Shown: positions 24,291 through 43,925 of the stretch, one piece after another
How positions within the stretch are numbered: position 1 is the first letter of the stretch
Layout: each line of letters begins with the position of its first letter
NCBI GenBank assembly: GCA_016234115.1
Contig: JACRHD010000060.1
Location: 41,135 to 105,134, forward strand
Length of the DNA stretch: 64,000 nucleotides
Direction: 5' to 3'
Source of the DNA: Nitrospirota bacterium
GTDB taxonomy: Bacteria; Nitrospirota; Thermodesulfovibrionia; UBA6902
Made by a program: the position numbers and the translations under genes
Notes under the pieces: model-generated
Database searches by the model: none
The model's input: the letters and a program-made list of their open reading frames with translations, nothing else
What the model was told of the DNA's origin: nothing

Positions 24291-24312
24291 TGGAACAATT
24301 ACGGCAAAACAC

Positions 24313-26731: not shown

Positions 26732-28216
26732 TCATACATGCCTGTTTATAATCTCATGGGCAAATGCCATGATAGTCCCCTGTGGGTTCTTTCCGATGCT
26801 GGAAGGCAGCACGCTCGCATCCGTCACTAATATATTGTCCATTTTCCACAGCTTACCGTCGGGATTTACTGCAGACACGGCAGGATCGGTTCCCATAGGA
26901 CATGAAGCCATGATATGGACGGTAACAATCTCGAGATTTTCAGGTCTGACCCGGTCAAGGGTCTGTTCCAGCTCGGGAAGCGATCTGATCTTTCCGGCCC
27001 CGGTGACCGGCATATAGAGCTCAATCGCCCCGGCCTGAAACAGCAGCTTGGCCGTTCTCCTCAGGGCCAGCTTGATCATTGACAGGTCATCAGGATCAAA
27101 CCTGTATGTTACCAACGGCTGATCTCCAAACCGGCTTGAAATATGCGCGACGCTTTTGGGCCGGATCATGGCCGTAAAAATCCCCAGATTTTCATAATTG
27201 CTCAATACCGAATTGATTTCTTCATTAGTATGCTGAGACAGTGTCATGGCTACATAGTGACGTTTAATATTTGAAGCCATAATCAAAAGACCTTCACGGT
27301 CAAACTCCTGCATCTGCACCGTGAACATCGTGCCCTGCTCCGCGTTGAGTCTGTCTTTAAAGCGGGCGACGACTTTAAGGTTCATATGGAACTGAAGATT
27401 ACGACCGGCCAGGCCCGAAATTCCGCTGCGGCGCAGCAAATGGGGGGTCTGGACGGCGCCGCCTGCCACCACCAGGTGATCAAACGATATTTCGATGCGT
27501 TTTGGTCCTCCGCCCATGACACGTACTATAATTTTTCTCGCCTTCCCGCCGGAATGGATAATCCGGACGGCGCGACATCGTGAAAAAATACGGGCGCCGT
27601 TATTCAAGGCCCTCGGAAGGTATGTCACAAGGGCGCTCTGTTTGGCGCCTGATATGCACCCGGTCGGACACGAGTTGCCGTTCTTGCAATCATTGACCGC
27701 TCGCGTGGCCATATCGCATTTCCAGCCCAACTCTTCCGAAGCCTTCAGAAGTTTCATTGAATCGAGATTTCCATTTTCCTCAATTTCATGTCTTACTACA
27801 TGCAGGTCCCTTTCAACCGTCTCGAAATACTTCTTCAGTTCATTCAGACCATACCCTTTTAAACCATAATCATTCTGCCACTCGTCAAGGACCCAGGAAG
27901 GAGTATGACAAATCAGGGCGCCGTTTATAACGGTGCCGCCGCCGACACAACAACCTTCGGCGAGCGCGATGGATGGTTTGCCGAGAAGAGGGAATACTCC
28001 CCGGTTTCTATAAAGTTGCGCCGTCATTGCGCTGATATCGGAGGTGTAGGATTCAGTCGGAAAATATCCGCCTTCTTCCAGGAAAATGACGTCCCGTCCC
28101 CTCTCGGCAAGCAATGCCCCCGCCACGCTTCCCCCTGCGCCGGTCCCGACTATCAGATACTGACAGCGGTAAGCCTTTTCAGTATAGTCTTGTCTGTCCA
28201 GAATCGAGTCTTTCAC
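26732..28216 (-). CDS. GMC-family FAD oxidoreductase (choline/alcohol dehydrogenase-like)
   Basis: Has the N-terminal 'YLIVGTGAGGSVAGALLAE' FAD fold and a C-terminal GMC domain. Confidence 0.8.
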   Translation of the reverse strand: MKDSILDRQDYTEKAYRCQYLIVGTGAGGSVAGALLAERGRDVIFLEEGGYFPTESYTSDISAMTAQLYRNRGVFPLLGKPSIALAEGCCVGGGTVINGALICHTPSWVLDEWQNDYGLKGYGLNELKKYFETVERDLHVVRHEIEENGNLDSMKLLKASEELGWKCDMATRAVNDCKNGNSCPTGCISGAKQSALVTYLPRALNNGARIFSRCRAVRIIHSGGKARKIIVRVMGGGPKRIEISFDHLVVAGGAVQTPHLLRRSGISGLAGRNLQFHMNLKVVARFKDRLNAEQGTMFTVQMQEFDREGLLIMASNIKRHYVAMTLSQHTNEEINSVLSNYENLGIFTAMIRPKSVAHISSRFGDQPLVTYRFDPDDLSMIKLALRRTAKLLFQAGAIELYMPVTGAGKIRSLPELEQTLDRVRPENLEIVTVHIMASCPMGTDPAVSAVNPDGKLWKMDNILVTDASVLPSSIGKNPQGTIMAFAHEIINRHV

Positions 28217-28256
28217 GGTAACTGTTATGGTCCTCTCAATATCGATACACTATATT

Positions 28257-28613
28257 TTAATGGTCCGGCGATAAGGGAAGGCTGTCAAACAGTTTCAAAA
28301 AAGCCATGGAGCGGACTAACTTGTTTAACATGCCGAAAGCAGGAATGAACCGGACGCTTCGCAGAAAGGAAGAGCGTTTTTCAGCCGGCAACAGGTTTAA
28401 TTTGCGTCCCGTAGTAATCAGACAGAGCAGGCCGGTTACAATGGCGAGAATTCTGACGGGTAAATGAAAATACCAGGGAAGGTTTGTTACTACATCGGAG
28501 ACGAACTGAAAGACGCCCTCCGCCGTATTGGAATTCCTTTTCTGCATGATTTGATACTGCCTCAAGGATTCTATGTTTTCCAGGACCATGCCTGCCAGCA
28601 CACTCTTCCACAT
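28257..28613 (-). CDS. hypothetical protein (possibly single TM)
   Basis: ORF-only call in the 435-nt gap between the GMC and aminotransferase genes. No motif recognised. Confidence 0.2.
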   Translation of the reverse strand: MWKSVLAGMVLENIESLRQYQIMQKRNSNTAEGVFQFVSDVVTNLPWYFHLPVRILAIVTGLLCLITTGRKLNLLPAEKRSSFLRSVRFIPAFGMLNKLVRSMAFLKLFDSLPLSPDH

Positions 28614-28652
28614 AAGCTTACCTGTTTGACCTGCGGTCTTAAACTGAATTGA

Positions 28653-30086
28653 TTATTTCTTTAAAACTTTTTGTTTGAGAAAATTCAAAATTAAAGTAAG
28701 CTTGCCGATTGCCAATGTCCTGTCCAGGGCATCGAGAAACGTATCCAATTCTTCATCAGATACAATTAAAGAAGGCGAGATGATAAGAGATATTTCTCTA
28801 TTATCACCAAAGAACGTTAAAACATTATGCGCGCTGAAAAGTTCCGATATAACGGAACCGGTGATTAATTTGGACAGAAATCGTTCATCCTTAAACACCT
28901 TTGCAGGTATTAAACTGATTAAAGACTTGACAAATGAGTTGATATCTTTATTGAAAATGACCCCATGCAATGCCCCGCTGCCTCTTACGTCATTTATCAA
29001 GTCAGGGTATTTACCCTGAAGCCTCTTTAAACCGTTACTCAAACGCAGGTGAATTCTCTTTGACTTGCCGACGTAATCGTCATCAACAATTATATTGATT
29101 GCTTCTATGGCCGTTATGCATTCTTCGCCGAAACCGCTGAAAGTGGTGCTGTGCAACGTTGCTTCATTCAGATTATCATATGCCTTGCGAAATAAAGGAG
29201 TACGCGTCGTGTAACCGGATATTGAAGACTTGCCGCCTCCAAAGGATTTTGAGAAAGTGACAATGTCCGGGATCGCGCCTTTTCCGATGAAATTGAACAG
29301 CTCACCGGTCTTTGCCCAGCCGGTGTATACCTCGTCAAAGATCAGAATAATCCCCTCGCCGCTGCAAATTCCGCGCAGCTCTTTTAAGAAGTCCGCGGAA
29401 CATTCCCGTAGACTGCTAGCGCTGAAGGGCTCAAGGATTATGGCATAGATATCGGATTTCCCGTTGGGCTTACGAATCTTCGCGACAAGATCTTTAATAC
29501 TTTCAATATTGCCGTACTCAAAACATTCTATATTTGGAATGGTGGGGAAATTATATACCAATTCCGGCGAGCCTGTCAGTCCCGCGGCTCCCAATAATTT
29601 GCCGTGAAAGGATATGTCGGCGTGCAAAATATGTTTTCTGTCCCCGTCATGGTATTTATAAGCAAGCTTGACTGCCCCCTCCACTGCTTCAGCTCCGGAA
29701 TTGCAAAAGAAACTTATATTCAGATCTTCCGGCATCAGCCTGGCTATATTGTGACTTAACCCCGCAATATACGGCGACAGAAAATTCTTGTGGACCTCCA
29801 TCTTCTTCTGTTTCTGAAATTCCACTCGCGCGGCAAGTATCCGCGGATGGTTGTGTCCGTGATTAAGCACTCCTATCCCGCCGGTAAAATCGAGAATCTT
29901 CCGGCCGTCCGATGTGTAAATGTACATCCCCTCGGCATGGCTGGCAACCGCCCTGCCGAAACCGAAAGAACCGATCAATTCGACCTGGCTCTTGTTGAAA
30001 TATTCCCTGTACAGCTCCTGGATCTTTTCAATATCAAATTCCGCGCATTCCTGCCATCTGTATAATTTGCCTGTGGGGGGTTGCAT
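28653..30086 (-). CDS. class-III PLP aminotransferase (omega-aminotransferase family)
   Basis: 'GGIGVLNHGHNHP', 'DEVYTGWAKTG' and 'TFSKSFGGG' match the class-III aminotransferase fold. Confidence 0.8.
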   Translation of the reverse strand: MQPPTGKLYRWQECAEFDIEKIQELYREYFNKSQVELIGSFGFGRAVASHAEGMYIYTSDGRKILDFTGGIGVLNHGHNHPRILAARVEFQKQKKMEVHKNFLSPYIAGLSHNIARLMPEDLNISFFCNSGAEAVEGAVKLAYKYHDGDRKHILHADISFHGKLLGAAGLTGSPELVYNFPTIPNIECFEYGNIESIKDLVAKIRKPNGKSDIYAIILEPFSASSLRECSADFLKELRGICSGEGIILIFDEVYTGWAKTGELFNFIGKGAIPDIVTFSKSFGGGKSSISGYTTRTPLFRKAYDNLNEATLHSTTFSGFGEECITAIEAINIIVDDDYVGKSKRIHLRLSNGLKRLQGKYPDLINDVRGSGALHGVIFNKDINSFVKSLISLIPAKVFKDERFLSKLITGSVISELFSAHNVLTFFGDNREISLIISPSLIVSDEELDTFLDALDRTLAIGKLTLILNFLKQKVLKK

Positions 30087-31696: not shown

Positions 31697-32680
31697 TCAT
31701 AACGGGTTAGACGGCGGCTTTGTCGATAAGCCCAGGTGTTGTTTAATGATCCATCGGGGCCGCTGTTTGACTTCATCATAGATTCTTCCGAGATACTGCC
31801 CTATAATCCCCAAAAAGATCAGTTGAACTCCTCCGAGGAAAAGGATCGTGACGTGGGTTGAAAATCCGGGCTTGAGCCCTATCCCCAAAGATTCGAAAAA
31901 GTCCCTGAAAATATATTGCAGCACAAGTAAAATAATGCCGAGAAAAGACAAAGCTGAAGTCCATAAACCGATATTGGTAGCCATTGACAGTGGAAGAGTT
32001 GAAAAAGATATTATGCCGTCCAGGGCCAGACGGCGCAATCTTTTGAAATCATACTTTGACTCTCCGGCAGTCCTTGCGTGCCTTTCATAGGCGAGGCCTG
32101 TTTGCCTGAACCCGGCCCATGCCCTCAATCCCCGTACAAACCTGTTTCTCTCTGGCATGGTATTTAAGATATCGACTATCTTCCGGTCCATGATACAAAA
32201 GTCACCTGAGTCCAGCGGCAGATCAAAATCTATCATTCTCGACAATAACCGGTAGAACGTCCAGTAGCTGATTTTCTTGAGGATCCCTTCTTTCCGGTGC
32301 TCTCTGACTGCGTACACTATGTCGTAACCATCCAGCCACTTTTTTATAAAACGATGGATTTCTTCCGGCGGGTCCTGCAGGTCAGCGTCAATAACAATGA
32401 CCGCGTCCCCTGTCGCATGAAATATGCCGGCTGAAACCGCCGTCTGATGTCCGAAGTTGCGGGAAAAAGAAAGTGCGGACCATCTCGGGTCATTCGCGTG
32501 CTGGGTGCTCAGCAGCGCCCAGGTGTTGTCATGAGAACCGTCGTCGATGCAAATAATTTCCCAATCAACCCCCCAGCCTTCAGCCGCGTCCGTCATTCTC
32601 CGGAAAAGCTCAGGAAGCACATCCTGTTCATTATAACAGGGGATAACAACAGATATTTTATACTTTTCTCTTCCGTTCAT
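31697..32680 (-). CDS. GT2 polyprenyl-phosphate glycosyltransferase (GtrB/ArnC/DPM1-type, C-terminal 2 TM)
   Basis: 'VVIPCYNE', 'IICIDDGSHDNT', 'DADLQDPPE', and a C-terminal hydrophobic pair of helices. Confidence 0.8.
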   Translation of the reverse strand: MNGREKYKISVVIPCYNEQDVLPELFRRMTDAAEGWGVDWEIICIDDGSHDNTWALLSTQHANDPRWSALSFSRNFGHQTAVSAGIFHATGDAVIVIDADLQDPPEEIHRFIKKWLDGYDIVYAVREHRKEGILKKISYWTFYRLLSRMIDFDLPLDSGDFCIMDRKIVDILNTMPERNRFVRGLRAWAGFRQTGLAYERHARTAGESKYDFKRLRRLALDGIISFSTLPLSMATNIGLWTSALSFLGIILLVLQYIFRDFFESLGIGLKPGFSTHVTILFLGGVQLIFLGIIGQYLGRIYDEVKQRPRWIIKQHLGLSTKPPSNPL

Positions 32681-33568: not shown

Positions 33569-35158
33569 ATGAAACCATATAAGACGTATTTTGAAGATAA
33601 ATATGAAATATGCATATATGGCCTACTGTTCATATCAGCCCTCGCGGCCGCCCTCCTTGCAGTAAAAAATATAAGAATATCTCCTGACTCGATGATATAT
33701 GCGCTGATTTCACAGGAGATACGGTCCGGCAATGGAATAACACTGCCGATAATTTATGATCTGAACGACAATTACGCCTTTATCGACGGGGCGGTCCCGT
33801 ATCTCGCTCAGCCCCCCCTTCTGCCGATGCTTTTCGCCTTATTGGGCGGGGTCACACCGCAAAATTTCCTGGCCGCACAGATAATTAATGTGATCAGTCA
33901 TGTGGCTACTGCGTTTTTCAGTTTTCTCTTAATGAAAAAATTATACGATAATAAGGCCGTTGCCCTGCTGACCGGGATACTCGTCTCCGTTTCCCTTCCT
34001 CTGGTGTCTAATGCCCACTCCATGTTGAGTGAATCGTTATTTGTCGCATTAACGACTGCGGCGTTATATTTTATAGTCTTGACGCGACATTCCGGCGGTC
34101 ATCAGTCAATCCGATATTATTTCATTGCGAGTATCTGCGCCGGCGCCGCTATTTCAACAAGGTTTGCCGGAGTGGCCCTGATACCAGTATTTTTGTGGGA
34201 AGTCTTTGTCCTGGTAAGGAACAAAAGCATAAAGTCAAAAGGCGCGGCCGCCGTCTTATCGGCAATGCTGCCTCTGATTGCCATCGGAGCGCTTTTCATT
34301 CGTAACTACTTTGTGTCGGGCACAATAGTAGGCTGGAACCCATATGCTTCCGAGAGGCCTTATACCGAAGCCCTTACAGGCACTTTGAAGATGCTATTTC
34401 TGCAATTTCAATTAGGAGGACATCTTGTTGCGCCGTTCATGGCGGCATCTGTTTTATTTATTCTGTATATTGTCGCGACTACTGATGGAAGAAAAAAAAT
34501 GACAGAGTGCGTTCATTCAGGACTGGACCTGCTTGTAGTTTTCATGCTGAGCTATACGGCGCTGATTACTCATGCACTGGCCAGGGTGCAGCCGCTTTTT
34601 GAAGTGCGATATATTTCTCCTTTGGCGCCTTTCTTATTTATAATTTGTATTCTTGTCATCGTTGTTTTATGGGACGTGATAAGATTTAAAGGGTTCTCCA
34701 AACTATCATTATTCGGAATGATATTGTCTCTCGGCATAATAATATTCGGTAATCTTTATAAGACGTGCTTGAATGCGGAGCCGTTATTTTCCCGTCAGAC
34801 CGGGCATTACCGGATACTGAATTCCCCTACGTACAACTGGATTAAACAGAATTATGATGAAGACGTCGTCATTACGACCAACAGACCGTTTCATCTCAGC
34901 TTTTTCGGGGGATATCCGACGGTAAGATTATCGCACAGGAGATTTAACAGGAATGATTATCTTCCTGATAACATGGAATCATTTCTGCCGGCCCGAATGT
35001 CCAGATTCGGATCGCGGGTGCTTGTCTTGTTTGAAGAAGTAGATGAGCAGAATGAAGGAAGTTATCTTACGGGACTGTTCAATAAGAGAGAAGGCGACGA
35101 CCGCTTTGTATTAATGCAAAAATTACCTGACGGGGTCATATATAATCTCAAGGAATAA
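33569..35158 (+). CDS. GT-C fold membrane glycosyltransferase (ArnT/PMT-like)
   Basis: 529 aa. The N-terminal polytopic region has many TM helices. A periplasmic C-terminal domain follows. The family call comes from topology and context. Confidence 0.5.
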   Translation: MKPYKTYFEDKYEICIYGLLFISALAAALLAVKNIRISPDSMIYALISQEIRSGNGITLPIIYDLNDNYAFIDGAVPYLAQPPLLPMLFALLGGVTPQNFLAAQIINVISHVATAFFSFLLMKKLYDNKAVALLTGILVSVSLPLVSNAHSMLSESLFVALTTAALYFIVLTRHSGGHQSIRYYFIASICAGAAISTRFAGVALIPVFLWEVFVLVRNKSIKSKGAAAVLSAMLPLIAIGALFIRNYFVSGTIVGWNPYASERPYTEALTGTLKMLFLQFQLGGHLVAPFMAASVLFILYIVATTDGRKKMTECVHSGLDLLVVFMLSYTALITHALARVQPLFEVRYISPLAPFLFIICILVIVVLWDVIRFKGFSKLSLFGMILSLGIIIFGNLYKTCLNAEPLFSRQTGHYRILNSPTYNWIKQNYDEDVVITTNRPFHLSFFGGYPTVRLSHRRFNRNDYLPDNMESFLPARMSRFGSRVLVLFEEVDEQNEGSYLTGLFNKREGDDRFVLMQKLPDGVIYNLKE

Positions 35159-35340
35159 TGTTGTCAGTGTGTGGGCCTTAACACTCTGAATTTTGGGCAT
35201 CTTTATCACTTATAAATCTCTATACGGTTTCCGCGTCGTCAAATCGCGGAAGGGCTTTATCCGCCTTCCTTTAAGTTCTTTTGAAAAATAATATATAATA
35301 TATACACTTATATAAAACAGGGGCTGACCTGAGAAGGTTT

Positions 35341-36402
35341 ATGAAAGATTTCTACAAAGGCAAAAACATATTATTGACAGGCGCCGCAGGCACTGTAGGA
35401 AGAGAACTCGTAAGACAACTTATCGCTTTTGGGCCTTCCGAGCTCCGTTTGATGGACAACAATGAAACAGAGATGTTCTTTCTTATGGAAGAATACAGAA
35501 ATGACCATGTGTTCTGTTTTCTCGGCGATATAAGAGACAGGGACAAGCTGGAAAAATTGTCAAAGGACGTGGATATAATCATTCACTCCGCGGCCTTCAA
35601 ACATGTTTATCTGTCCGAATATAATCCATTCGACGTAGTGCAGACAAATATAATCGGAGTTGAAAATATTATAAGAGCGGCGACCTCGGGCAATGTGAAA
35701 CTTCTCCTGTTTACAAGCAGCGACAAAGCTGTAAATCCTACTAATGTTATGGGCACCTCCAAACTTATGGGTGAAAGGCTGATAACCGCCGCGTCCGCCG
35801 TGCGAAATAACAGCAATACCATTTTCAGCAGCACCAGGTTCGGCAATGTTCTCGGGTCAAGAGGTTCCGTAGTTCCTTTATTCATGAAACAGATCAGAAA
35901 AGGCGGTCCCGTGACCATTACGGACAAGAGAATGACCAGATTTGTCATGACCATAGAAGAAGCCGCAAGATTGGTGCTGCAATCAGTCCTGATCGCAAAA
36001 GGGGGTGAAGTTTTCATTACAAAAATGCCGGTCGTAAGAATACCCGACCTTGCCGAAGCAATGATAAAGCTGCTTGCGCCAAAGTATGGTTATAAACCTG
36101 CGGACATTAAAACCGTTGAAATCGGGATGAAGGCCGGTGAAAAGTTATATGAGGAGCTGATGAGCGATCAGGAGGTCCCGCGCTCCATGGAATTAAAAGA
36201 TATGTTTGTGGTGACCCCGGCTTTCAAGGCGCTTTTTCAGTCAATAAAACATGAATATCCCGACACCGTTTCCAATAAAATAGAGAGGTCTTATATATCG
36301 GAGAATGAAACACCATTGAATGTATATGAGATTGAAAAATATCTTATTGAAAACAGGGTGATCGAGAAAGTTGAAGAATTTTCCTACGGCAGCAGTGTTT
36401 GA
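35341..36402 (+). CDS. polysaccharide biosynthesis protein CapD/PseB-like (UDP-GlcNAc 4,6-dehydratase-type SDR)
   Basis: 'KNILLTGAAGTVGREL' plus a characteristic CapD/FlaA1 core ('FTSSDKAVNPTNVMGTSKLMGERL'). Confidence 0.75.
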   Translation: MKDFYKGKNILLTGAAGTVGRELVRQLIAFGPSELRLMDNNETEMFFLMEEYRNDHVFCFLGDIRDRDKLEKLSKDVDIIIHSAAFKHVYLSEYNPFDVVQTNIIGVENIIRAATSGNVKLLLFTSSDKAVNPTNVMGTSKLMGERLITAASAVRNNSNTIFSSTRFGNVLGSRGSVVPLFMKQIRKGGPVTITDKRMTRFVMTIEEAARLVLQSVLIAKGGEVFITKMPVVRIPDLAEAMIKLLAPKYGYKPADIKTVEIGMKAGEKLYEELMSDQEVPRSMELKDMFVVTPAFKALFQSIKHEYPDTVSNKIERSYISENETPLNVYEIEKYLIENRVIEKVEEFSYGSSV

Positions 36403-36518
36403 GTATTTTTATCCGGCCGCGGACGAACGTTCTGCCGGCCTGCATGCAGGCGCCTTCGTCGGCTTATTAGTGGGGAAATAATAATTTATCATCATCAGGT
36501 CAATAACGGAGGTGCTGC

Positions 36519-37667
36519 TTGAAAATTCTGATCTTGGGCGCTGACGGTTATTTAGGCTGGCCCAGTTGTTTATATTTTTCCCGGAGAGACCACGAAGTTA
36601 CCGGAGTTGATAACTACTTCCGCCGCAACGCCGCAACGGAACTCGACTGTGAATCCCTAATACCCGCGCCCAATCTTCTTCAAAGGGCGAATATATGGAA
36701 AGAAGTCACGGGCAGAAGCATCAAAGTGCATATAGGGGACATTACCAATTACGAGTTTCTCCTGTCCTTATTCAGAGAATACAATCCTGACGCGGTCATT
36801 CACTATGCGGAACAGCCTTCCGCTCCTTATTCCATGATGAGCCGGGACAAGGCCGCTTTTACTGTGCAGAACAATCTTATCAGCACTCTTAACATAATGT
36901 ACGCGGTAAAAGAGGTCAATCCGGAATGTCACATCATTAAGCTCGGGACCATGGGAGAATACGGCACGCCGAATATCGATATTGAAGAGGGTTGGCTGGA
37001 AATAGAGCATAACAGCCGCAAAGACAGGTTTCTGTTTCCAAGACAGGCAGGTTCGTTGTATCACACGACAAAGGTCCAGGACACGGACATGATCTGGTTT
37101 TACGTCAGGACATGGGGCCTCGGAGTGACGGACCTGATGCAGGGGCCCGTGTACGGACTTTCCACCGAAGAGACGGACCTCGACCCCCGGCTGACGCCGA
37201 GCTTCCACTACGATGAAATATTCGGGACTGTTTTAAACAGATTCATAGTCCAGGCTGTTGCGGGATATCCCCTTACGGTCTTCGGAAAAGGCAACCAGAC
37301 AAGGGGATTTTTGAACTTAAGAGACACCATGCAGTGCGTTTATTTGTCCGCCTCACGGCCTGCCGCCCGTGGACAGCTCAGGGTCTTCAACCAGTTGACG
37401 GAACAATTTTCAGTTAATCAGCTTGCGGAGAAAGTAAAAATAGTCGGGGACAGGCTTGGTTATAATGTTGTGATCAAGCATATTAATAATCCGAGAGTCG
37501 AGAAAGAAGACCATTACTACAATGTAAAATATACGGGACTCTTTGACCTGGGACTGAAACCTCATTATCTGACGGATGAAATCCTTGAAAGCTTTTTCGC
37601 AGTTACGGACACATATAAGGACCTTATCAACAGGGACGCTTTCTTCAGAGGCGTAAGTTGGAAATAA
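36519..37667 (+). CDS. UDP-sulfoquinovose synthase (SQD1/SqdB-like)
   Basis: 'KLGTMGEYGTPNIDIEEG', 'EQPSAPYSM' and 'YHTTKVQDTDMIWF' closely match the SQD1 signature blocks as I recall them from memory. The N-terminus is GADGYLGWP. Confidence 0.7.
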   Translation: MKILILGADGYLGWPSCLYFSRRDHEVTGVDNYFRRNAATELDCESLIPAPNLLQRANIWKEVTGRSIKVHIGDITNYEFLLSLFREYNPDAVIHYAEQPSAPYSMMSRDKAAFTVQNNLISTLNIMYAVKEVNPECHIIKLGTMGEYGTPNIDIEEGWLEIEHNSRKDRFLFPRQAGSLYHTTKVQDTDMIWFYVRTWGLGVTDLMQGPVYGLSTEETDLDPRLTPSFHYDEIFGTVLNRFIVQAVAGYPLTVFGKGNQTRGFLNLRDTMQCVYLSASRPAARGQLRVFNQLTEQFSVNQLAEKVKIVGDRLGYNVVIKHINNPRVEKEDHYYNVKYTGLFDLGLKPHYLTDEILESFFAVTDTYKDLINRDAFFRGVSWK

Positions 37668-37752
37668 CACTTCTTACTGAATAATTTCGATATGGAACCA
37701 ATAATGAAGCCCCGCTGTATTTTTTTGCCGGGCTTGCCGCATGGGCCGTTAA

Positions 37753-38061
37753 ATGATAAATAACGAAAATATCTTACAGGCCGTTATAGAGACTATCGAT
37801 GAATTAAACGGGCAACTGCCGAAAGAGCAACGATTGGAGAAGTCTGCCGACACGGCCCTTTTCGGCAATGAGGGGCCGCTGGATTCTTTAGGTTTAGTCA
37901 GCCTGATTACGACGTTGGAACAAAAAATCGAAGAGAAGTCAGGGAAGCCGGTAACCATACTTGAGGAATTGGAAGCCCTTGAAAATGAAAATCCCTTTGA
38001 AACGGTCAGGACCCTGGTCGCATATGTCGCTTCCTCTTTAGAGCAAAGGGGACATGAATAA
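37753..38061 (+). CDS. acyl carrier protein
   Basis: 'GPLDSLGLVSLITTLE' is the phosphopantetheine-attachment DSL motif. Its stop overlaps the FkbH-like start. Confidence 0.65.
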   Translation: MINNENILQAVIETIDELNGQLPKEQRLEKSADTALFGNEGPLDSLGLVSLITTLEQKIEEKSGKPVTILEELEALENENPFETVRTLVAYVASSLEQRGHE

Positions 38062-39751
38062 ACAAAAGGTCAGGTGCGTATTAATATCCGATTTCAACCT
38101 GGATATTTTTTCCGGATATTTAAGCAATGATGAAGAGCTTCCTGCCGTCGCTGCCGTCGCCGCTCCCTTCGGCCAGGTAACACAGCTCCTGGTGCAGGAA
38201 GACCCGGAGTACTGGAACGGCAATACCGACTTTGCTTTTATCTGGACCAGACCGGAAGGAGTCATTAAGTCCTTTAATGACCTTCTCGCTTACAACCCGC
38301 ATTCAATAGCGGACATCCTTGATGAAGTCGATCAATTCGCCTCTCTATTGCTGAAGCTTTGCGACAGGGTAAGGTTCGTATTTGTTCCCGCCTGGATTAA
38401 GTCCTTCAACAGGGGGTCCGGCCTGCTTGACATGAAAAAGGACGTCGGCATTGCGAATATTTTAATGCAAATGAACTTGAGACTGTGTGAAATATTCGAG
38501 CAAAGATCCAATATTTACCTGCTTGACTCACAAAACTGGGTAAACGCCGCAGGCAAGTACGCCTTCAATCCGAGGTTATGGTACAGGGGGAAGATCGCCT
38601 TTGGAAACGACGTTTACAAGGCTGCGGTAAGGGACATAAAATCCGCCATAAGGGGCCTGGAAGGACTTTCAAAAAAGGTCCTTGTTCTTGATCTGGACAA
38701 TACCTTGTGGGGTGGGGTTGTCGGCGACCTCGGATGGGAGGGCATTGTATTGGGCGGACATGATCCGATAGGTGAAGCGTTTGCGGACTTTCAGCGCGCT
38801 TTAAAAGCATTGTCGAATCGGGGCGTCCTGCTGGCAATAGTAAGCAAGAATGAAGAACCTGTCGCGCTGGAGGCAATAAATAAACATCCTGAAATGGTCC
38901 TGAGATTGAAAGACTTCGCCGGATGGAGGATCAACTGGCTGGACAAGGCCTCCAATATTGCAGACCTGATCGCGGACCTGAACCTTGGTCTCCAGTCAGT
39001 GGTCTTTATCGATGACAATCCAATGGAACGGGCAAGGGTCAGAGAGACCCTGTCCGAGGTGCTTGTCCCTGAATGGCCCGAAGACATTATGCTGTACACA
39101 AGTACGCTCCTCGGTCTGCGCTGTTTTGACAGTCCTTCACTGAGTAAGGAAGACACTGAAAGAACAAAGATGTATATTTCGGAGAAACAGCGAAAGGAGC
39201 TCAGGAAAAGTCTCGGCTCTTTTGATGAATGGCTGGGCAGCCTGGAGACCAGGACCAGCGTGGAAGAATTGAACAGGGTCAATCTTCAAAGGACTGCGCA
39301 GTTGTTAAACAAGACCAGTCAAATGAACCTCTCAACAAGAAGGCTGTCCGAACGGGAGCTTGCCGACTGGGCGGATGAAGACTACCGGAAACTCTGGACT
39401 TTTCGCGTATCGGACAAACTGGGAGATTCAGGTCTTACCGGCATTATCAGTCTTGAAGTAATAAACAAAACAGGGCGAATCGTGGATTTCGTTCTGAGTT
39501 GCAGGGTCATAGGCCGCAAGGTTGAAGAAGCGATGCTCTTTACCGTTATTGACTACGCGCGCGGCCTGGGTTTAGATGAGCTTGTAGCGGAATTTTTGCC
39601 GACGCAAAAAAACAAACCCTGCCTGGACTTCTGGAAAAGATCAGGTTTTGATTTTGATGTCCGGAGAAATTCCTTTACGTGGGACGTGGAAAGAGATTTT
39701 CAAATGCCGGAACACATTGAAATCCTGACGACTGAACACGTTGACGAGTAA
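38054..39751 (+). CDS. FkbH-like HAD-IIIC protein (glyceryl-S-ACP synthase family)
   Basis: 'VLVLDLDNTLWGGVVGDLGWEGIVLGG...AIVSKNEE' is the HAD-IIIC core. A C-terminal acyltransferase-like domain follows. 565 aa. Confidence 0.8.
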   Translation: MNKQKVRCVLISDFNLDIFSGYLSNDEELPAVAAVAAPFGQVTQLLVQEDPEYWNGNTDFAFIWTRPEGVIKSFNDLLAYNPHSIADILDEVDQFASLLLKLCDRVRFVFVPAWIKSFNRGSGLLDMKKDVGIANILMQMNLRLCEIFEQRSNIYLLDSQNWVNAAGKYAFNPRLWYRGKIAFGNDVYKAAVRDIKSAIRGLEGLSKKVLVLDLDNTLWGGVVGDLGWEGIVLGGHDPIGEAFADFQRALKALSNRGVLLAIVSKNEEPVALEAINKHPEMVLRLKDFAGWRINWLDKASNIADLIADLNLGLQSVVFIDDNPMERARVRETLSEVLVPEWPEDIMLYTSTLLGLRCFDSPSLSKEDTERTKMYISEKQRKELRKSLGSFDEWLGSLETRTSVEELNRVNLQRTAQLLNKTSQMNLSTRRLSERELADWADEDYRKLWTFRVSDKLGDSGLTGIISLEVINKTGRIVDFVLSCRVIGRKVEEAMLFTVIDYARGLGLDELVAEFLPTQKNKPCLDFWKRSGFDFDVRRNSFTWDVERDFQMPEHIEILTTEHVDE

Positions 39752-39843
39752 GCGAGACCGGGCATGGTCTATATCATGCCCTGCAGAGGAACGATGCCTA
39801 TACTGTTGAAAAAAGTTATACTATCTTTCTGGAACAAGCACAC

Positions 39844-41265
39844 ATGAAACATCGCAGATTCACTTCAGATGATCAGCTCGCCTTTGCGGAACTGTCGGGC
39901 GATTATAATCCTTTGCACATAGACGCGATTGCCGCCCGCAGGTCTCTTTTCGGCGCGCAGGTGGTGCATGGAATACATTCTCTGTTATGGGGTCTGGATT
40001 GGTGGCTGGAGGGAAAGACATCATCAATACAATTTCGTTCAGTGAAGACTGTTTTTCCCAAACCGGTCAGGGTCGGCGACCAGGTAAGTCTGTTGATTGA
40101 GAATCATGGCGAAAGGCGCTCTACGATTAAGTTGCAAAGCGGCGGCTCGACGGCATCGATAACGGACATTGAATGGACTGAGGCCGGGGAAGGCAGCAGC
40201 GACTTTATTAAAGCGGGTTTCCCGGACAGGCGGCAGCCGCGCTGCTTATCGGATAATGAAATAGAGACGGCCTCGGGGACTTTGGACCTGTATTTGAATA
40301 TTGAAGCGGCGGGAAAGATATTTCCCAACCTTGTCGGATGCGTCTCTCCATTGCAGATTGCGATTATTTTAAGCACTACCAGATTGGTCGGCGTTGAGTG
40401 TCCGGGGGCGCGTTCAATGTATTCTTCCCTGAATTTGTCCTCAAACGACCTGTCTGACGGCGCAACAATGAAATATGAAGTCACAAAACTCGACAGGCGT
40501 TTCGGGCTGGCATCTATCAGTGTATCGGCCCCCGGCATGGCCGGCGCCATAAAGGCATTTATCCGGCCGTCTCATCAGGACCAGGCCGCCTGCCTGGAGT
40601 TGAAGAAATTCGTTGAGAGTAATGAGTTTAAGGGCCAGCGCGCGCTGGTCATAGGAGGGTCCCGGGGCCTGGGCGAAGTGTCCGCAAAACTCCTGGCTGC
40701 CGGAGGAGCGGACGTGAAAATAACCTATCATCAGGGAATGGATGACGCCCTGCGCGTTGTCGGGGACATCAATTCCAACGGCGGAATTTCCGGAAGCATC
40801 CATGTCAATGTGTTGTCCCCTGAACAGGATTCCCTTCTTTCATCTCTCGACGGCTGGGCCCCTACTCATTTGTACTATTTTGCCACCCGTTTCATATTTT
40901 CAGGAGTTAAAGGAGTATTTTCAGGAGAGTTGTTCACTGACTTCTGCGATTATTATATTTTCGGTTTTATTAATATCGTAGACCGGTTGCGACGCCTGGG
41001 GCTGAGGAATGTTTTCTATCCGTCGACCGTCGCCATTGACGAACTGCCCCCGGACATGGGAGAGTATACGGCAGCCAAGACGGCAGGCGAAGTGCTGTGC
41101 ATGTATTTGAAGAAAGGCAATAAAGACATGACGGTCTACTGCCCCCGGCTCGATAGAATGAGCACTGATCAGACAGTCAGTTTATTACATATCAGGAGCC
41201 ATGATCCTGCGCCGGTCATGCTGGAACATTTGAGAAAATTCAGGGACGCATCAGCTCCAAAATAA
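39844..41265 (+). CDS. MaoC-like hot-dog dehydratase fused to a short-chain dehydrogenase/reductase
   Basis: N-terminus 'FAELSGDYNPLHID...VVHGI' is the MaoC dehydratase. C-terminus 'ALVIGGSRGLGEVSAKLLAAGGADV' is an SDR. Confidence 0.7.
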   Translation: MKHRRFTSDDQLAFAELSGDYNPLHIDAIAARRSLFGAQVVHGIHSLLWGLDWWLEGKTSSIQFRSVKTVFPKPVRVGDQVSLLIENHGERRSTIKLQSGGSTASITDIEWTEAGEGSSDFIKAGFPDRRQPRCLSDNEIETASGTLDLYLNIEAAGKIFPNLVGCVSPLQIAIILSTTRLVGVECPGARSMYSSLNLSSNDLSDGATMKYEVTKLDRRFGLASISVSAPGMAGAIKAFIRPSHQDQAACLELKKFVESNEFKGQRALVIGGSRGLGEVSAKLLAAGGADVKITYHQGMDDALRVVGDINSNGGISGSIHVNVLSPEQDSLLSSLDGWAPTHLYYFATRFIFSGVKGVFSGELFTDFCDYYIFGFINIVDRLRRLGLRNVFYPSTVAIDELPPDMGEYTAAKTAGEVLCMYLKKGNKDMTVYCPRLDRMSTDQTVSLLHIRSHDPAPVMLEHLRKFRDASAPK

Positions 41266-41287
41266 CACTTGATACAATGGACCTAAA

Positions 41288-42364
41288 GTGGTTAAATGCA
41301 TAATTCGGGAAGCCGGCGATGACGACATCGAGGGCATAGCCCGGCTCCGGCTCAGGATCAAAGAGTTTCAGCCGATTGAAACAGAAGAATATACGGCTTT
41401 CTGGAAAAGCTGGATCAAGGACAACCCCCGGTCAGGGCAGAAAGTCTTTGTAGCAGTGGACGACAAAGGCGGGATTGTAGGTCATTACGCCATGGTCGCC
41501 TATGATTTTAGAAGGGACGGTAATACATTAGTGGGTGGATTTGTCGGACAACTGATGGTGGACGAAGACTACAGGAATGCGCTCATATTCCCCAAAATGC
41601 TGTTGAAGCTCCTCAGAGAATATAAAGACGCCGGCGTAGATTTCGTGTACAGCCTGAGCAACAGACAGGAAGTGGTAACGGCGCATCAGTCCTTTGGTTT
41701 TCGTAAAATCGGCGTACTGTCTGTTTATGCAAGACCATACAAATTTACAAAAATAGGCGGCCATCTTATAAAAAACAAGCTGTTGTATTCAACAATGAAA
41801 CCTTTTCTCCTGCTTGCTGAAAAGGTCGTTCCCTTAATCGGTTTCGCGGGCAGCAGTCGGTTGAAGGTAAAAGAGATATCAAAATTCGACGCAAGCGTTG
41901 ATAAGTTTATTGAAGAGGTCCGGCTCTATTTTCCTTATTGTATTGTCCGCAATGCCGCTGTGCTTAATTGGCTGACGCTCGGCTCTCCCGCGAGAAAATA
42001 CAGGGCATTGATTGCTGAAGAAGAGGGAAATTTTTCCGGATATGTAGTGGTCCGTCGTATGAAAATGAAACAGTTTGACGTCCTGGCCATTGTGGACATA
42101 TTATTCTCGCCGGAACGCCCGGACGTAGGGAAGGCGCTCCTGAAGGCCGCCCACGGTATCGCCCGTCAGATGCAGGTCGACATGACGAATTGTCTGCTGA
42201 GTTCCCATGACCCGCTGTACCCGACGCTGAAGAAATGCGGCTATTACAAGACACCGGAATCGATCGCGCTGTTTATTCATGAACAGAAAGGCGCGGTCCC
42301 TCAATTTACGGAAGACTCATTTTTCAGGTGGCACCTGACCTGGCTTGATCATGATTCCGTATAG
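41288..42364 (+). CDS. GNAT-like acyltransferase with a C-terminal extension
   Basis: Weak GNAT motif A region (GGFVGQLMVDEDYRNALIFPKML). 358 aa. Confidence 0.4.
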   Translation: MVKCIIREAGDDDIEGIARLRLRIKEFQPIETEEYTAFWKSWIKDNPRSGQKVFVAVDDKGGIVGHYAMVAYDFRRDGNTLVGGFVGQLMVDEDYRNALIFPKMLLKLLREYKDAGVDFVYSLSNRQEVVTAHQSFGFRKIGVLSVYARPYKFTKIGGHLIKNKLLYSTMKPFLLLAEKVVPLIGFAGSSRLKVKEISKFDASVDKFIEEVRLYFPYCIVRNAAVLNWLTLGSPARKYRALIAEEEGNFSGYVVVRRMKMKQFDVLAIVDILFSPERPDVGKALLKAAHGIARQMQVDMTNCLLSSHDPLYPTLKKCGYYKTPESIALFIHEQKGAVPQFTEDSFFRWHLTWLDHDSV

Positions 42365-42515
42365 GGACCGTCAAATCGGGAAGATGATCAGGATGGAATG
42401 ATTTTATGTTAGTATGTCGGATGAAACTGGCTGAATGTCCGGATCCATTTGCATAGATCGATGTCGCTGTCGCATATTTAATTTATTGGTAATTATAACT
42501 CTTAAATAAATTTAA

Positions 42516-43925
42516 ATGAATAAAATCCTACTTGTTAATCCTCCTTACAATCTGGAAGTTTATAAAGAGAACAAGAATTTTTCCGTCCACCCTCCTGTAG
42601 GGCTGGCTTACCTGGCGAGTTTCATAAAGGGGCACGGATATGACGTCGAACTTATTGACGCCAATGCCCTCAACATGTCCAAAAATGAGCTCATCGATCT
42701 TCTCATTAATCATCCTGCCGGCATTATCGGAATTACAAGCGTGACCGCTACTATTAATCTTGTATGCCGTATCTGTGACAAGGTCAAAGAGAGCTCAGGC
42801 AAGGTATTGATCATAGGCGGACAACATGCGACATTTAAGGCCGAAGAAATATTGGCGGGCTGCAAATCAATTGACTATATAGTGCGCGGCGAAGGGGAGA
42901 TGACCCTGCTTCGCCTGTTGAACAGATTGAAGATCAATAAAACGGCAAGAGGACTAATGGGGATTACTTACTCTGAAGAAAACAGGACAATTTCAAACCC
43001 GCCCCGCCCTCCGATAAAGAACATAAATAAATTGCCGTTCCCCGCCTGGGAACTTTTGCCGAGATCGAGATACCGTCTTAACGGGTTCCAGGACATCGGA
43101 TTCAAGGGTGAACAATTAGGGAAGCTGATTTCCACGAGGGGCTGCCCCAATAAATGCACCTTCTGTTCGTCCGCTCATTTTTGGGGCAAACCGCGCTTTA
43201 GAAATGTTGATAATATTTTCGAGGAATTAGTGTTTCTGACGCAGAAATTAAAGGTCAGGCACATAGATTTTATGGACGACTGCCTGACGATTCCCGTTTC
43301 GAGATTCAGGGAATTATGCAACAGGATCATCGGGAACAATTTGAATTTTAAATGGAGTTGTTACTCAAGGGTCCAGAATATAAACGAAGAGCTTGTCCAA
43401 TTGATGAAAAAGGCGGGATGCTTCATGGTGCTGCTCGGGATTGAAAGCGGCAACCAGGAGATAATAAACAGCATCAGGAAGAATATTACACTGGAACAGG
43501 TCACTAACGCGGTAAAGCTGTTTAAAAAATATGATATCGACTGTCTCGGTTTTTTTATGGTCGGCCTGCCGAAGGACACCAAAGAAACGGTCCGTGAAAC
43601 AGTCGATTTTGCCAGGAAATTAAACCTCGACTTCCCTTTCTTTTCAGTCACGACGCCTTTCCCGGGCACCGAGCTGTATGACTGGTTTATGTCGAGCAAT
43701 CTTTCCCCCGGCAGTTTTCAATGGAGCCAGCTTTCCACACATGGGGCGACTGTTTATCGCACGGAGAATTTGTCTTCCGAAGAAATCAAAAAACTGTATG
43801 ATTACGCCATAAGAAAATGCTATCTCGACCCGGCTTTTATTACAAAGCTGATAATAAAAATGATTAAAAACCCGTACAAGCTTTCGAGGTACTGGAAATT
43901 ATTCAGGACCTTCATAAATGTCTGA
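42516..43925 (+). CDS. B12-binding radical SAM protein (class B radical SAM)
   Basis: The N-terminal B12-binding domain reads ILLVNPPY...VGLAYLASF. The radical-SAM cluster motif is 'STRGCPNKCTFCSS'. Confidence 0.8.
   Translation: MNKILLVNPPYNLEVYKENKNFSVHPPVGLAYLASFIKGHGYDVELIDANALNMSKNELIDLLINHPAGIIGITSVTATINLVCRICDKVKESSGKVLIIGGQHATFKAEEILAGCKSIDYIVRGEGEMTLLRLLNRLKINKTARGLMGITYSEENRTISNPPRPPIKNINKLPFPAWELLPRSRYRLNGFQDIGFKGEQLGKLISTRGCPNKCTFCSSAHFWGKPRFRNVDNIFEELVFLTQKLKVRHIDFMDDCLTIPVSRFRELCNRIIGNNLNFKWSCYSRVQNINEELVQLMKKAGCFMVLLGIESGNQEIINSIRKNITLEQVTNAVKLFKKYDIDCLGFFMVGLPKDTKETVRETVDFARKLNLDFPFFSVTTPFPGTELYDWFMSSNLSPGSFQWSQLSTHGATVYRTENLSSEEIKKLYDYAIRKCYLDPAFITKLIIKMIKNPYKLSRYWKLFRTFINV

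Follow-up and report, generated by a model that had tools for sequence, protein, structure and literature searches.

A conserved gene set pairing an SQD1-family enzyme with carrier-protein acylation genes, a candidate envelope glycan tailoring operon of a Nitrospirota bacterium

Seven co-directional ORFs on the + strand, named in an initial annotation of this DNA, were all found at their expected positions in the window (the whole 64-kb stretch that was analysed) and carry the predicted domains. They encode a short soluble UDP-GlcNAc C6-dehydratase of the CapD/Pen class (35341..36402), an SQD1-family enzyme of the Pro101 subtype, putatively a UDP-6-sulfo-6-deoxyhexose synthase (36519..37667), a dedicated acyl carrier protein of 102 aa (37753..38061), an FkbH-type HAD-IIIC glyceryl-carrier loader (38054..39751), a MaoC (R-hydratase-type) dehydratase fused to an SDR ketoreductase (39844..41265), a predicted carrier-dependent tandem-GNAT N-acyltransferase (41288..42364), and a class B (B12-binding) radical SAM enzyme (42516..43925). 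The close spacing described earlier was also recovered, with successive gaps of 116, 85, -8 (an overlap), 92, 22, and 151 nt, and the seven genes may be transcribed together as an operon. The unit probably starts at an upstream ArnT-like GT-C glycosyltransferase gene (PMT_2; 33569..35158, + strand; PF13231, E = 5.9e-9) and would then extend from 33569 to 43925. This gene is co-directional with the set and divergent from a methyltransferase gene ending at 33419.

The linkage of SQD1 and FkbH genes is found again in five further, independent contigs (L004, L090, L091, L093, and L175), whose proteins share 55–88% identity with the window set. All six contigs, including the window, keep the core order of SQD1, no or one inserted gene, carrier, FkbH, tailoring gene, and GNAT. 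Changes around this core include an inserted membrane Sulfatase-family gene, an inserted HEPN gene, and a replaced tailoring gene. Since the core order persists despite such insertions and gene swaps, the linkage looks selected. At least 10 further contigs are apparently common to the three homologue match lists. In L004 and L175, the set is immediately preceded by an orthologue of the GT-C gene (42% and 57% identity, respectively).

The first gene of the set had been called PseB/CapD-like. Its product (Polysacc_synt_2, E = 1.7e-97) does belong to the CapD/Pen class. True PseB identity was rejected, as the protein reaches 278 bits on TIGR03589, where the cut-off is 407, and has Met instead of the catalytic Tyr; the FnlA equivalog cut-off was failed as well. 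Its best PDB match is Pen (6BWC, 284 bits), followed by FnlA (207), CapE (203), and FlaA1 (200), and it contains the motif SSDK...VMGTSK, i.e., [ST]DK..Mx3K. Pen, its best solved relative, is the UDP-GlcNAc 5,6-dehydratase that acts with a second SDR, Pal, in Bacillus thuringiensis. Here too the dehydratase gene is followed by a second extended-SDR gene, whose product could conceivably act on a 5,6-ene. However, that second enzyme is of the SQD1 family and not the Pal family, and the dehydratase, like CapE, FnlA, and PglF, has Met for the catalytic Tyr. The dehydratase gene is also found directly upstream of Pro101-subtype SQD1 genes in other phyla, and in Jettenia and others the two genes form a pair with no FkbH gene.

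The SQD1-like protein proved to be a genuine SQD1-family member and no generic epimerase. It matches PDB 1QRR over its full length (E = 8.6e-135), whereas the next-best SDR structure reaches only E = 4e-9, and it shares 50% amino acid identity with Arabidopsis SQD1. The KLGTMGEYGTPNIDIEEG block pointed out in the initial annotation is present, and H96, T145, M146, E148, Y149, Y182, H183, K186, and Q209 are all kept. The sole signature residue that is changed is Arg101, which is replaced by Pro. Pro occupies this position in 120/120 closest homologues and predominates in the family; among 89 diverse representatives, 65 retain all other signature residues. Arg is present at position 101 in the two enzymes that have been assayed, SQD1 and Agl3, and the R101A mutant of Agl3 is inactive. 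On the NF041015 profile, the protein scores 457.5 bits, under a cut-off of 575 that Arabidopsis SQD1 itself does not reach either (484.7 bits). With SQD1 (Arabidopsis, 1QRR) and Agl3 (Sulfolobus acidocaldarius) the protein has in common the GxxGxxG motif, the T145/Y182/K186 triad, M146-G-E148-Y149, H183, and Q209. It differs from them in Pro101, and its gene is partnered by a UDP-GlcNAc C6-dehydratase and a carrier acylation cassette instead of SqdX/SQD2 or Agl N-glycosylation genes. No SqdX/SQD2-type (GT4) or other SQ transferase and no sulfite-supply gene were identified in the 64-kb window. The earlier suggestion of a sulfonated hexose agrees with the SQD1-family signature, but Arg101 is absent and the habitual pairing with a UDP-GlcNAc C6-dehydratase suggests that the sugar may differ from canonical sulfoquinovose.

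The carrier protein retains the DSL serine (Ser45 in an LDSLGL motif), shows weak similarity to DltC, and is 44–46% identical to the carriers of two adenylase-type loci, L173 and L174. In most related loci, the carrier gene is directly upstream of FkbH. In the window the two genes overlap, as had been noticed, by 8 nt (carrier stop TAA at 38059-38061, FkbH ATG at 38054), and FkbH is translationally coupled to the carrier. The loader scores 280.6 bits on TIGR01686 (cut-off 146.65) and matches PDB 3SLR with E = 2e-46. Its catalytic residues, DxDxT (D213, D215, T217) and C483, are intact and invariant in a 12-sequence alignment (A1). Like FkbH/OzmB-type glyceryl-ACP loaders, it combines the HAD DxDxT motif with a C-terminal Cys domain and a dedicated carrier, but it has an additional FkbH_N domain at its N terminus, a feature shared with Bacteroides BF1531. 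The carrier-FkbH pair is common as a module of glycan loci, mostly without SQD1, and the carrier-FkbH-MaoC-SDR set is also found without SQD1 in most lineages. In agreement with the initial annotation, the scanned ORFs of at least 150 aa (positions 500-64000) contained no ketosynthase or PKS domain, and the window contains no NRPS or tetronate genes.

The MaoC-SDR protein contains PF01575 (residues 4-94, E = 2.6e-16), has intact hydratase (GDYNPLH) and SDR (GGSRGLG and YTAAK) motifs, and shows structural matches to PhaJ, MFE-2, and FabG. The proposed processing of a glyceryl-carrier by a dehydratase/reductase is reasonable. The tailoring enzyme for the carrier-bound C3 unit is exchangeable: in L175 and L088, a Glyoxalase_4/VOC gene takes the place of MaoC-SDR. 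In FkbH-type loading modules, the conversion of glyceryl to D-lactyl is done by DH and KR domains. By analogy with such modules of trans-AT PKSs (FR901464 and bryostatin; D-lactyl-ACP), in which a dehydratase and a ketoreductase also adjoin the loader, MaoC-SDR may convert glyceryl-carrier to lactyl-carrier. In contrast to those modules, there is no PKS here, the enzymes are free-standing, the dehydratase is of the MaoC type and not a PKS DH domain, and the acyl group is proposed to pass to the tandem-GNAT and not to a ketosynthase. D-lactyl-ACP from FkbH-type loading modules is modelled in PMC7901079, citing Zhang et al. (2011).

The enzyme annotated as a GNAT-like acyltransferase (Acetyltransf_9) is indeed of GNAT type, and the assignment can be refined to a tandem-GNAT N-acyltransferase tied to a carrier. 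Its AF2 model (pLDDT 90.9) retrieved N-myristoyltransferases (TM 0.60-0.67) and the Eis-like 2HV2 in Foldseek, and the predicted fold is a tandem-GNAT, NMT/Eis-like one. The family is tiny (71 clusters), and its gene lies next to the carrier gene in all loci examined, with FkbH and adenylase (AMP-binding) loaders alike. Such an identity implies amide formation on an amino group, and the acceptor would be an amine. UDP-sulfoquinovose has no amino group, and the two modules may therefore act on separate residues. A polysaccharide deacetylase gene, whose product would free an amine, adjoins the GNAT gene in L004, L091, L174, and L175 and is absent from that place in the window. In Nod factor (NodF/NodB/NodA) and lipid A (LpxC/LpxD) synthesis, N-deacetylation is followed by ACP-dependent N-acylation of a GlcN residue. 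Likewise, a dedicated carrier is proposed here as the acyl donor to a sugar amine, and the deacetylase gene stands beside the transferase gene in the four related loci. Unlike in those systems, the acyl group here would be a C3 hydroxy acid from a glycolytic intermediate instead of a fatty acid, no deacetylase gene adjoins the GNAT gene in the window, and the tandem-GNAT fold is unrelated to NodA and LpxD.

The final gene encodes the radical SAM enzyme (PF02310 and PF04055), which has a CPNKCTFC cluster motif, sub-threshold matches to BchE, HpnJ, and PhpK, and a match of 86 bits to AprD4 in the PDB. An orthologue with 88% identity directly follows the GNAT gene in L175; L091 has no radical SAM gene and L004 has a different one.

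Upstream, a GT2 gene on the - strand (31697..32680) encodes a protein that matches PgfS (263.8 bits) and ArnC (195.8 bits) along the full length, in each case under cut-off. It probably performs the lipid-carrier loading step and may belong to the unit; an orthologue, 75% identical, is present in the L004 locus. A GMC oxidoreductase and a class-III (omega) aminotransferase, the latter PigE- and putrescine-aminotransferase-like, are encoded at 26732..30086 (- strand; Pfam matches). Their orthologues in L004 share 63% and 75% identity, and none were found in the searched stretches of L091 and L175. The pair could possibly provide an alcohol-to-amine step, and its membership of the unit is uncertain. 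The surrounding 30 kb contain four GT2 modules, additional genes of GT-C-like type, an Arn-like set, and a deoxy-aminosugar set with a 2,3-dehydratase. Such an island, made up of polyprenyl-phosphate sugar modules, suggests an envelope glycan and not a lipid or polyketide. Of the product formerly described as an envelope glycan or lipid, the glycan is therefore favored by the GT-C and GT2 genes, while the lipid is disfavored by the lack of an SqdX/SQD2-type transferase in the window.

Family memberships, catalytic motifs, the modelled tandem-GNAT fold, gene order, and its conservation are established here. On this basis, we propose, with a probability of roughly 0.5, that the region, probably 33569-43925, is a cell-envelope glycan tailoring operon in which a nucleotide-sugar module and a C3 hydroxy-acyl module are linked. 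In the sugar module, the dehydratase and the SQD1-family enzyme would yield a 6-deoxy-6-sulfo hexose nucleotide, the latter by the SQD1 mechanism of C4 oxidation, 5,6-elimination, addition of sulfite to the 4-keto-5,6-ene, and reduction. In the acyl module, a C3 hydroxy-acyl donor would be built on the carrier. FkbH would dephosphorylate 1,3-bisphosphoglycerate and load the glyceryl group onto the phosphopantetheine arm, the MaoC dehydratase would strip the 3-OH to give enol-pyruvoyl/pyruvoyl-carrier, and the fused SDR would reduce this to lactyl-carrier. The tandem-GNAT may then transfer the acyl group to a sugar amino group, and the radical SAM enzyme may add a further modification, e.g., C-methylation. 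The finished sugar would be placed on polyprenyl phosphate by the GT2 and attached to its acceptor beyond the cytoplasmic membrane by the GT-C enzyme. Each enzyme type is already known; the pairing of an SQD1-family enzyme with carrier-protein acylation is itself an undescribed combination. The earlier interpretation was thus partly supported, its SQD1, FkbH, no-PKS, and linkage elements being kept, its lipid option not, and its sulfoquinovosyl option becoming less certain.

A tentative alternative, less probable than the linked operon, is that the glycan island houses two cassettes that are independent of each other. The dehydratase and SQD1-like enzyme would make one residue, the carrier, FkbH, MaoC-SDR, and GNAT would N-acylate another amino sugar, either in that glycan or in a separate one, and adjacency would reflect the modular build of glycan loci and not one chemical product. 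Each half does occur alone: the dehydratase-SQD1 pair in Wzx/Wzy loci (Jettenia and GCA_014874185), carrier-FkbH in many phyla in loci that lack SQD1, sometimes together with MaoC-SDR, and the GNAT-like gene with an adenylase in L173 and L174, again without SQD1. The window also holds at least three other sugar modules. Within the clade, however, SQD1 stays directly upstream of the carrier in six contigs, with no more than one gene between them, even where neighbors have been inserted or swapped.

It is improbable that no sulfur is involved and that the two SDR enzymes follow a Pen/Pal-like route that yields a 6-deoxy-HexNAc, either 4-keto or epimerised, and that this sugar would then be aminated or deacetylated and N-acylated. 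The missing Arg101, essential in Agl3, would fit this, as would the release of a 5,6-ene by Pen for Pal, the weak match to Pal (6BWL), and the translational coupling of the dehydratase and SQD1-like genes in Jettenia. Yet the SQD1-specific T-M-G-E-Y, Y-H-x-x-K, and Q209 are all intact, whereas ordinary dehydratases have an acid/base pair, e.g., DE or DK, where SQD1 has M-G (PMC8987622, Table 1). Pro101 is moreover the usual family state, and the 453 bits to SQD1 far exceed the 24 bits to Pal. It is very improbable that the set produces a small secondary metabolite or the head group of a sulfolipid (SQDG-like or glycerate-based), in which glyceryl-carrier would serve as building block and not decoration, although characterised FkbH enzymes in the literature found all serve polyketide or tetronate pathways and the classic role of SQD1 is sulfolipid synthesis. 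Against it stand the lack of KS, PKS, NRPS, tetronate, and SqdX/SQD2-type GT4 genes in the window, the modelled N-acyltransferase fold of the transferase, and the neighbors, all glycan genes around GT-C and GT2 enzymes.

The proposed glycan operon resembles the flagellin glycosylation locus of Campylobacter jejuni 11168, where cj1299-cj1304 comprise acpP2, an epimerase, the FkbH-domain gene cj1302, fabH2, and acpP3, in that an FkbH-domain gene and carrier proteins lie within a glycan locus. No function of cj1302 is reported in the literature found on that locus. N-glyceroyl sugars do exist, as glyceroyl-modified nonulosonic acids such as Pse5Am7Gra of Tannerella, and their genetic basis has been termed unresolved in the literature. 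The C. jejuni locus differs in having no SQD1, MaoC-SDR fusion, or tandem GNAT, and the sugars of C. jejuni 11168 and Tannerella are nonulosonic acids, whereas an SQD1-product sugar is predicted here.

Seven co-directional ORFs were found on the forward strand of the window, with the domains that the initial annotation had named for them. Pfam and NCBIfam searches identified a Polysacc_synt_2 protein of the CapD/Pen dehydratase class (35341-36402), an SQD1-like protein matched over its full length by a UDP-sulfoquinovose synthase model (36519-37667), a weakly DltC-like carrier of 102 aa (37753-38061), an FkbH/HAD-IIIC protein exceeding its curated cut-off (38054-39751), a protein with an N-terminal MaoC and a C-terminal SDR domain (39844-41265), a GNAT protein (41288-42364), and a B12-binding radical SAM protein (42516-43925). 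The intergenic gaps are 116, 85, -8, 92, 22, and 151 nt, and the expected overlap of the FkbH start with the carrier stop is seen in the sequence. A promoter and terminator scan gave counts not above the shuffled expectation and 0 terminators in the intergenic gaps; the set is a putative operon.

As first proposed, the SQD1-like protein is a member of the SQD1 family and not a generic epimerase. It matches the Arabidopsis SQD1 structure (1QRR) end to end over residues 2-382 (E 8.6e-135), whereas the next SDR structure reaches only E 4.4e-9, and it shares 50% identity with Arabidopsis SQD1. Residues H96, T145, M146, E148, Y149, Y182, H183, K186, and Q209 (SQD1 numbering) are kept, the SQD1-specific motifs KLGTMGEYG (T-M-G-E-Y) and LYHTTK (Y-H) are present, and the catalytic T145/Y182/K186 are intact. 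Of 89 full-length family representatives (SQD1 set P0241-P0390, 50% clustering level), 69-86 keep the residues at the catalytic and signature positions. The protein scores 457.5 bits against NCBIfam NF041015 (cut-off 575 bits), but this failure was dropped as an argument against SQD1. Arabidopsis SQD1 itself scores 484.7 bits; the proven family thus extends below the cut-off, which says nothing on the SQD1-like protein.

The sole exception among the signature residues is Arg101, which is Pro in the SQD1-like protein (AEQPSAPY) and in 119/119 readable motifs among its best 120 homologues. The R101A mutant of Agl3 is inactive (PMC4388408). Among the 89 representatives residue 101 is Pro in 65 and Arg in 18, so that Arg101 may not be a defining residue of the family; it partly co-varies with residue 208, Arg occurring with Asn or His and Pro with Met. 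The Arg essential in Agl3 is thus missing from 65 of these proteins, both assayed enzymes of the family (SQD1 and Agl3) are Arg-type, and most annotation of the family amounts to inference. Judged by sequence, it is plausible that the Pro-type majority sulfonates. Automatic "UDP-sulfoquinovose synthase" labels span Arg-type and Pro-type proteins alike. No SqdX/SQD2-type GT4 was found in the window, and an ArnC/PgfS-like GT2 (31697-32680) is only a candidate SQ transferase.

The dehydratase had been described as PseB/CapD-like. Its CapD/Pen-class assignment stands and strict PseB does not, with 278 against a required 407.75 bits for TIGR03589 and a Met for Tyr; the FnlA equivalog is failed as well. 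The motif is SDK...MxxxK, with Met in VMGTSK where [ST]DK..Yx3K has Tyr, a type also present in CapE, FnlA, and PglF (review PMC8987622). Among solved structures, Pen, the B. thuringiensis UDP-GlcNAc 5,6-dehydratase, is closest, with 284 bits compared to about 200 for FlaA1, CapE, and FnlA. In six of seven informative loci, a dehydratase orthologue (54-85% identity) lies directly 5' of the SQD1-like gene. In the related contigs L002/L003 (Candidatus Jettenia) and L005/L006 (GCA_014874185), the dehydratase gene overlaps a Pro101 SQD1-like gene by 4 nt, at 8865-11149 or the equivalent position, within Wza/Wzc/Wzx/Wzy polysaccharide loci from which FkbH genes are absent. The pair is conserved by itself across phyla, and its upstream placement and overlaps suggest that the two enzymes cooperate. 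The two may share the work on a GlcNAc-derived 5,6-ene in the manner of Pen and Pal, which is only a lead. The rule that the Pro101 subtype always accompanies a CapD-like gene was rejected, since one Anaerolineae Pro-type gene (L170/L171) is flanked by histidine-biosynthesis genes and lacks a CapD-like neighbour.

The FkbH protein scores 280.6 bits against TIGR01686 (cut-off 146.65) and 65.6 bits against the HAD-IIIC model (cut-off 35.75). In an alignment of 12 FkbH sequences (A1, 58-71% identity), both the HAD motif I DLDNT (D213, D215, T217; consensus DLDDT) and the acyl-enzyme Cys of the C-terminal domain (C483, in LSCRV) are invariant, and the catalytic DxDxT and Cys are accordingly retained. 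The carrier beside it, whose stop overlaps the FkbH start, bears the phosphopantetheinyl-serine motif LDSLGL, which fits the dedicated carrier that had been postulated. In the glycan loci examined, the pairing of a 102-aa carrier with an FkbH gene that follows and overlaps it is nearly universal as a two-gene module; it was seen in Omnitrophota, Planctomycetota, Acidobacteriota, Gemmatimonadota, Bacteroidota, Clostridia, and several archaeal groups. Its partners vary: one Omnitrophica genome has it in a nonulosonic-acid-like locus, and many of the more distant loci carry MBOAT genes. In C. jejuni 11168 an FkbH-domain gene, cj1302, lies within the flagellin glycosylation locus. The literature searched contained no report of FkbH in polysaccharide or O-antigen pathways, and the genetic basis of N-glyceroyl sugars has been called unresolved. 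The carrier/FkbH pair is a very widespread (dozens of phyla, archaea, Campylobacter), essentially uncharacterised glycan-locus module and a concrete candidate for how bacterial sugars acquire N-glyceroyl and other C3 acyl groups of this kind.

The MaoC half of the fusion protein contains the hydratase motif GDxNPxH, and the SDR half contains Gly-rich and YxxxK motifs. FkbH-containing loading modules, such as those of the FR901464 and bryostatin systems, yield D-lactyl-ACP. By analogy to these modules we infer a lactyl-carrier as the outcome of tailoring, in which a glyceryl-carrier would be converted to an enol-pyruvoyl- or pyruvoyl-carrier and then to the lactyl-carrier. No paper linking FkbH and lactyl-ACP was found in the literature searched. 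The step is swappable: a 134-aa Glyoxalase_4/VOC protein stands in for MaoC-SDR in L088 and also in L175, where the rest of the locus is orthologous. Cultured organisms that carry FkbH together with MaoC-SDR are Arhodomonas sp. AD133 and Salinisphaera sp. G21_0 (L029 and L071). A metagenome scan with the MaoC-SDR protein as sole query returned 0 confirmed relatives and was rerun with the FkbH alignment as query.

The GNAT-like protein belongs to a strikingly small family (71 clusters among 5.8 billion). Its AF2 model (pLDDT 90.9, pTM 0.89) has two GNAT-fold halves per chain, and Foldseek aligned it with N-myristoyltransferases (E 2e-16, TM 0.60-0.67, about 370 columns) and also with the Eis-like 2HV2. 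According to this model the predicted architecture is a tandem GNAT (NMT/Eis/MshD-like). Because the nearest solved relatives are acyl-thioester-to-amine transferases, we infer that the protein probably catalyses the same type of transfer. A 368-aa GNAT in L124 was rejected as a homologue, the profile comparison being not significant (probability 9%).

More distant members of the GNAT-like family (41-43% identity) are encoded in L173 (7606-11074) and L174 (6768-11068), where the order is carrier, SDR, AMP-binding adenylase, and tandem GNAT; in L174 a deacetylase gene precedes the GNAT-like gene. Neither locus has FkbH or SQD1, and their carriers are 44-46% identical to that of the window. Carrier and tandem GNAT are therefore the fixed pair, around which loading by FkbH or by an adenylase, and tailoring by MaoC-SDR, VOC, or SDR, are interchangeable, a testable logic for sugar N-acyl diversity. 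A Polysacc_deac_1 gene adjoins the GNAT-like gene in L004, L091, L174, and L175, an arrangement that recalls N-deacetylation followed by N-acylation in NodB/NodA and LpxC/LpxD. No deacetylase adjoins the GNAT-like gene in the window, the nearest (52470-53249) being only 27-29% identical, and this is a gap in the model. Both L173 and L174 also carry a Sulfatase-family neighbour without the formylglycine motif, and L174 several B12 radical SAM genes.

The radical SAM protein of the window matches PF02310 (E 1.7e-20) and PF04055 (E 8.9e-25) and contains CxxxCxxC as C210-x3-C214-x2-C217. With both the B12-binding domain and this core present, its assignment to class B is upheld, and it reaches no equivalog cut-off. 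The orthologue in L175 is 88% identical, and the gene is present or absent among related loci.

Co-localisation of SQD1 with the FkbH genes is confined to the clade whose FkbH is at least 66% identical to that of the window. The order SQD1, zero or one gene, carrier, FkbH, a variable gene, and GNAT is shared by the window, L004, L090, L091, L093, and L175. It withstands insertion of membrane Sulfatase-family and HEPN genes, replacement of MaoC-SDR by VOC, and variation in whether the radical SAM gene is present, and at least 10 further contigs, matched by their lengths, are common to all three homologue hit lists. This persistence argues for selection on the SQD1-FkbH linkage at the level of gene order, and does not prove placement of sulfonate and acyl group on the same residue. 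The HEPN-domain gene of L093 forms a toxin-antitoxin-like pair with a small ORF (3544-4625) between the SQD1-like and carrier genes, the rest of the order being intact. An almost syntenic copy of the locus is found in L004 (JAWCQT010000015.1, GCA_038869635.1), labelled Candidatus Nitrosotenuis, an archaeon; eight proteins are shared with the window at 51-78% identity, which indicates either mis-binning or inter-domain transfer. The Sulfatase-family neighbour in L004, L091, L173, L174, and L175 was considered as a link to sulfur chemistry and rejected, the C/S-x-P-x-R formylglycine motif being absent from 4/4 sequences checked. In L004 and L091 the N-termini of the proteins are long and hydrophobic, and these neighbours look like Thr-type alkaline-phosphatase-superfamily transferases. 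No homologue was found in the window.

The seven genes are surrounded by further sugar genes. Upstream and co-directional is a PMT_2 GT-C gene (33569-35158, forward strand) with orthologues in L004 and L175, and on the opposite strand are the ArnC/PgfS-like GT2, a methyltransferase, a PigE/putrescine-type omega-aminotransferase, and a GMC oxidoreductase, 4/4 conserved in L004. Four GT2 genes are distributed across 30 kb (31697-32680, 48165-48893, 57430-58380, and 63025-63963); the first two have NCBIfam matches to ArnC/GtrB-type polyprenyl-phosphate glycosyltransferases and the last two match Pfam GT2 only. GT-C-like genes at 33569-35158, 44006-46654, and possibly 53678-55249 are each next to their own sugar-tailoring genes, and a YfhO-like GT-C lies downstream of the seven-gene set. 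A HAD-UbiA fusion resembling decaprenyl-phosphate phosphoribosyltransferase (46716-48137, reverse strand) qualifies for the PRK08238 equivalog with 609 bits, a hint of a mycobacterial-type polyprenyl-phospho-pentose donor in a Nitrospirota genome. A second class-B B12 radical SAM protein (31% identical to the first), a NodU/CmcH-type carbamoyltransferase, and a polysaccharide deacetylase are encoded at 49027-53249 (reverse strand), adjoined by an Arn-like set of DegT, epimerase, and GT2 (55212-58380). The genes at 58803-62894 (forward strand), for an NDP-hexose 2,3-dehydratase, a GFO/IDH/MocA ketoreductase, a DegT aminotransferase, and a hexapeptide acetyltransferase, form a complete-looking putative route to a 3-acetamido-2,3,6-trideoxyhexose and are followed by the fourth GT2. 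To our knowledge, such a route is unusual outside antibiotic producers. The GT2/GT-C arrangement resembles a modular island that serves to decorate glycans in the periplasm.

The initial annotation proposed a sulfo-sugar and acyl-carrier module for an envelope glycan or lipid. This stands in part: with the set lying among polyprenyl-phosphate-sugar modules that span approximately 30 kb, an envelope glycan is more likely than a lipid or polyketide, and from its gene content the locus is classified as a putative glycan tailoring cluster. A route to methoxymalonyl-ACP or a tetronate (FkbG-K, PKS) was rejected, as no FkbK/FkbI-type dehydrogenases, O-methyltransferase, or PKS/FabH-like enzyme was found in the scanned ORFs. 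The earlier statement that there is no PKS agrees with the absence of any ketosynthase, PKS, or condensing enzyme from every sizeable ORF scanned in the window. As a specific product of the glycan cluster, we propose that the Pro101 SQD1-like enzyme and the CapD/Pen dehydratase might make an undescribed UDP-2-acetamido-2,6-dideoxy-6-sulfo-hexose ("N-acetyl-sulfoquinovosamine"), which would be deacetylated, C3-reacylated, and exported on polyprenyl phosphate; this full scheme is unlikely as it stands, with a probability of roughly 12%. The dehydratase would supply UDP-GlcNAc-5,6-ene, to which the SQD1-like enzyme would add sulfite. The sulfo-amino sugar would then be N-deacetylated and receive a lactyl or glyceryl group derived from 1,3-bisphosphoglycerate via the dedicated carrier, a NodB/NodA-like N-acyl exchange with a glycolysis-derived C3 unit. 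Export on polyprenyl phosphate would decorate the envelope in Nitrospirota and related uncultured bacteria. The literature searched gave no example of a C6-sulfonated GlcNAc from nature. All component families are known; new relative to that literature are the joining of an SQD1-type enzyme to an FkbH carrier cassette with a dedicated tandem-GNAT transferase, the modular carrier and GNAT logic, and the pairing of dehydratase and SQD1.

Sulfoquinovose ranks among the major organosulfur compounds, and its known occurrence is chiefly in lipids of photosynthetic membranes and in a few archaeal N-glycans. The conservation of an SQD1-type gene in loci for envelope glycans, in non-photosynthetic Nitrospirota as well as anammox and other bacteria, would suggest additional, unaccounted sources of C-sulfonated sugars.

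Two other gene clusters were observed in the window. At 20482-26277 (reverse strand), a fused E1 (alpha/beta, 654 aa) and an E2 (lipoyl and catalytic domains, 378 aa) of a 2-oxoacid dehydrogenase adjoin an MBOAT protein (506 aa) and an unknown 381-aa protein, with no E3 gene among the neighbouring genes scanned. The E1/E2 and MBOAT genes could be a further acyl-donor system for extracytoplasmic O-acylation. A cbb3-type oxidase cluster at 503-10097 (forward strand), encoding CcoN, a CcoO/P fusion, a CcoG-like protein, DsbD_2, and a copper P-type ATPase, indicates a microaerophilic source organism.
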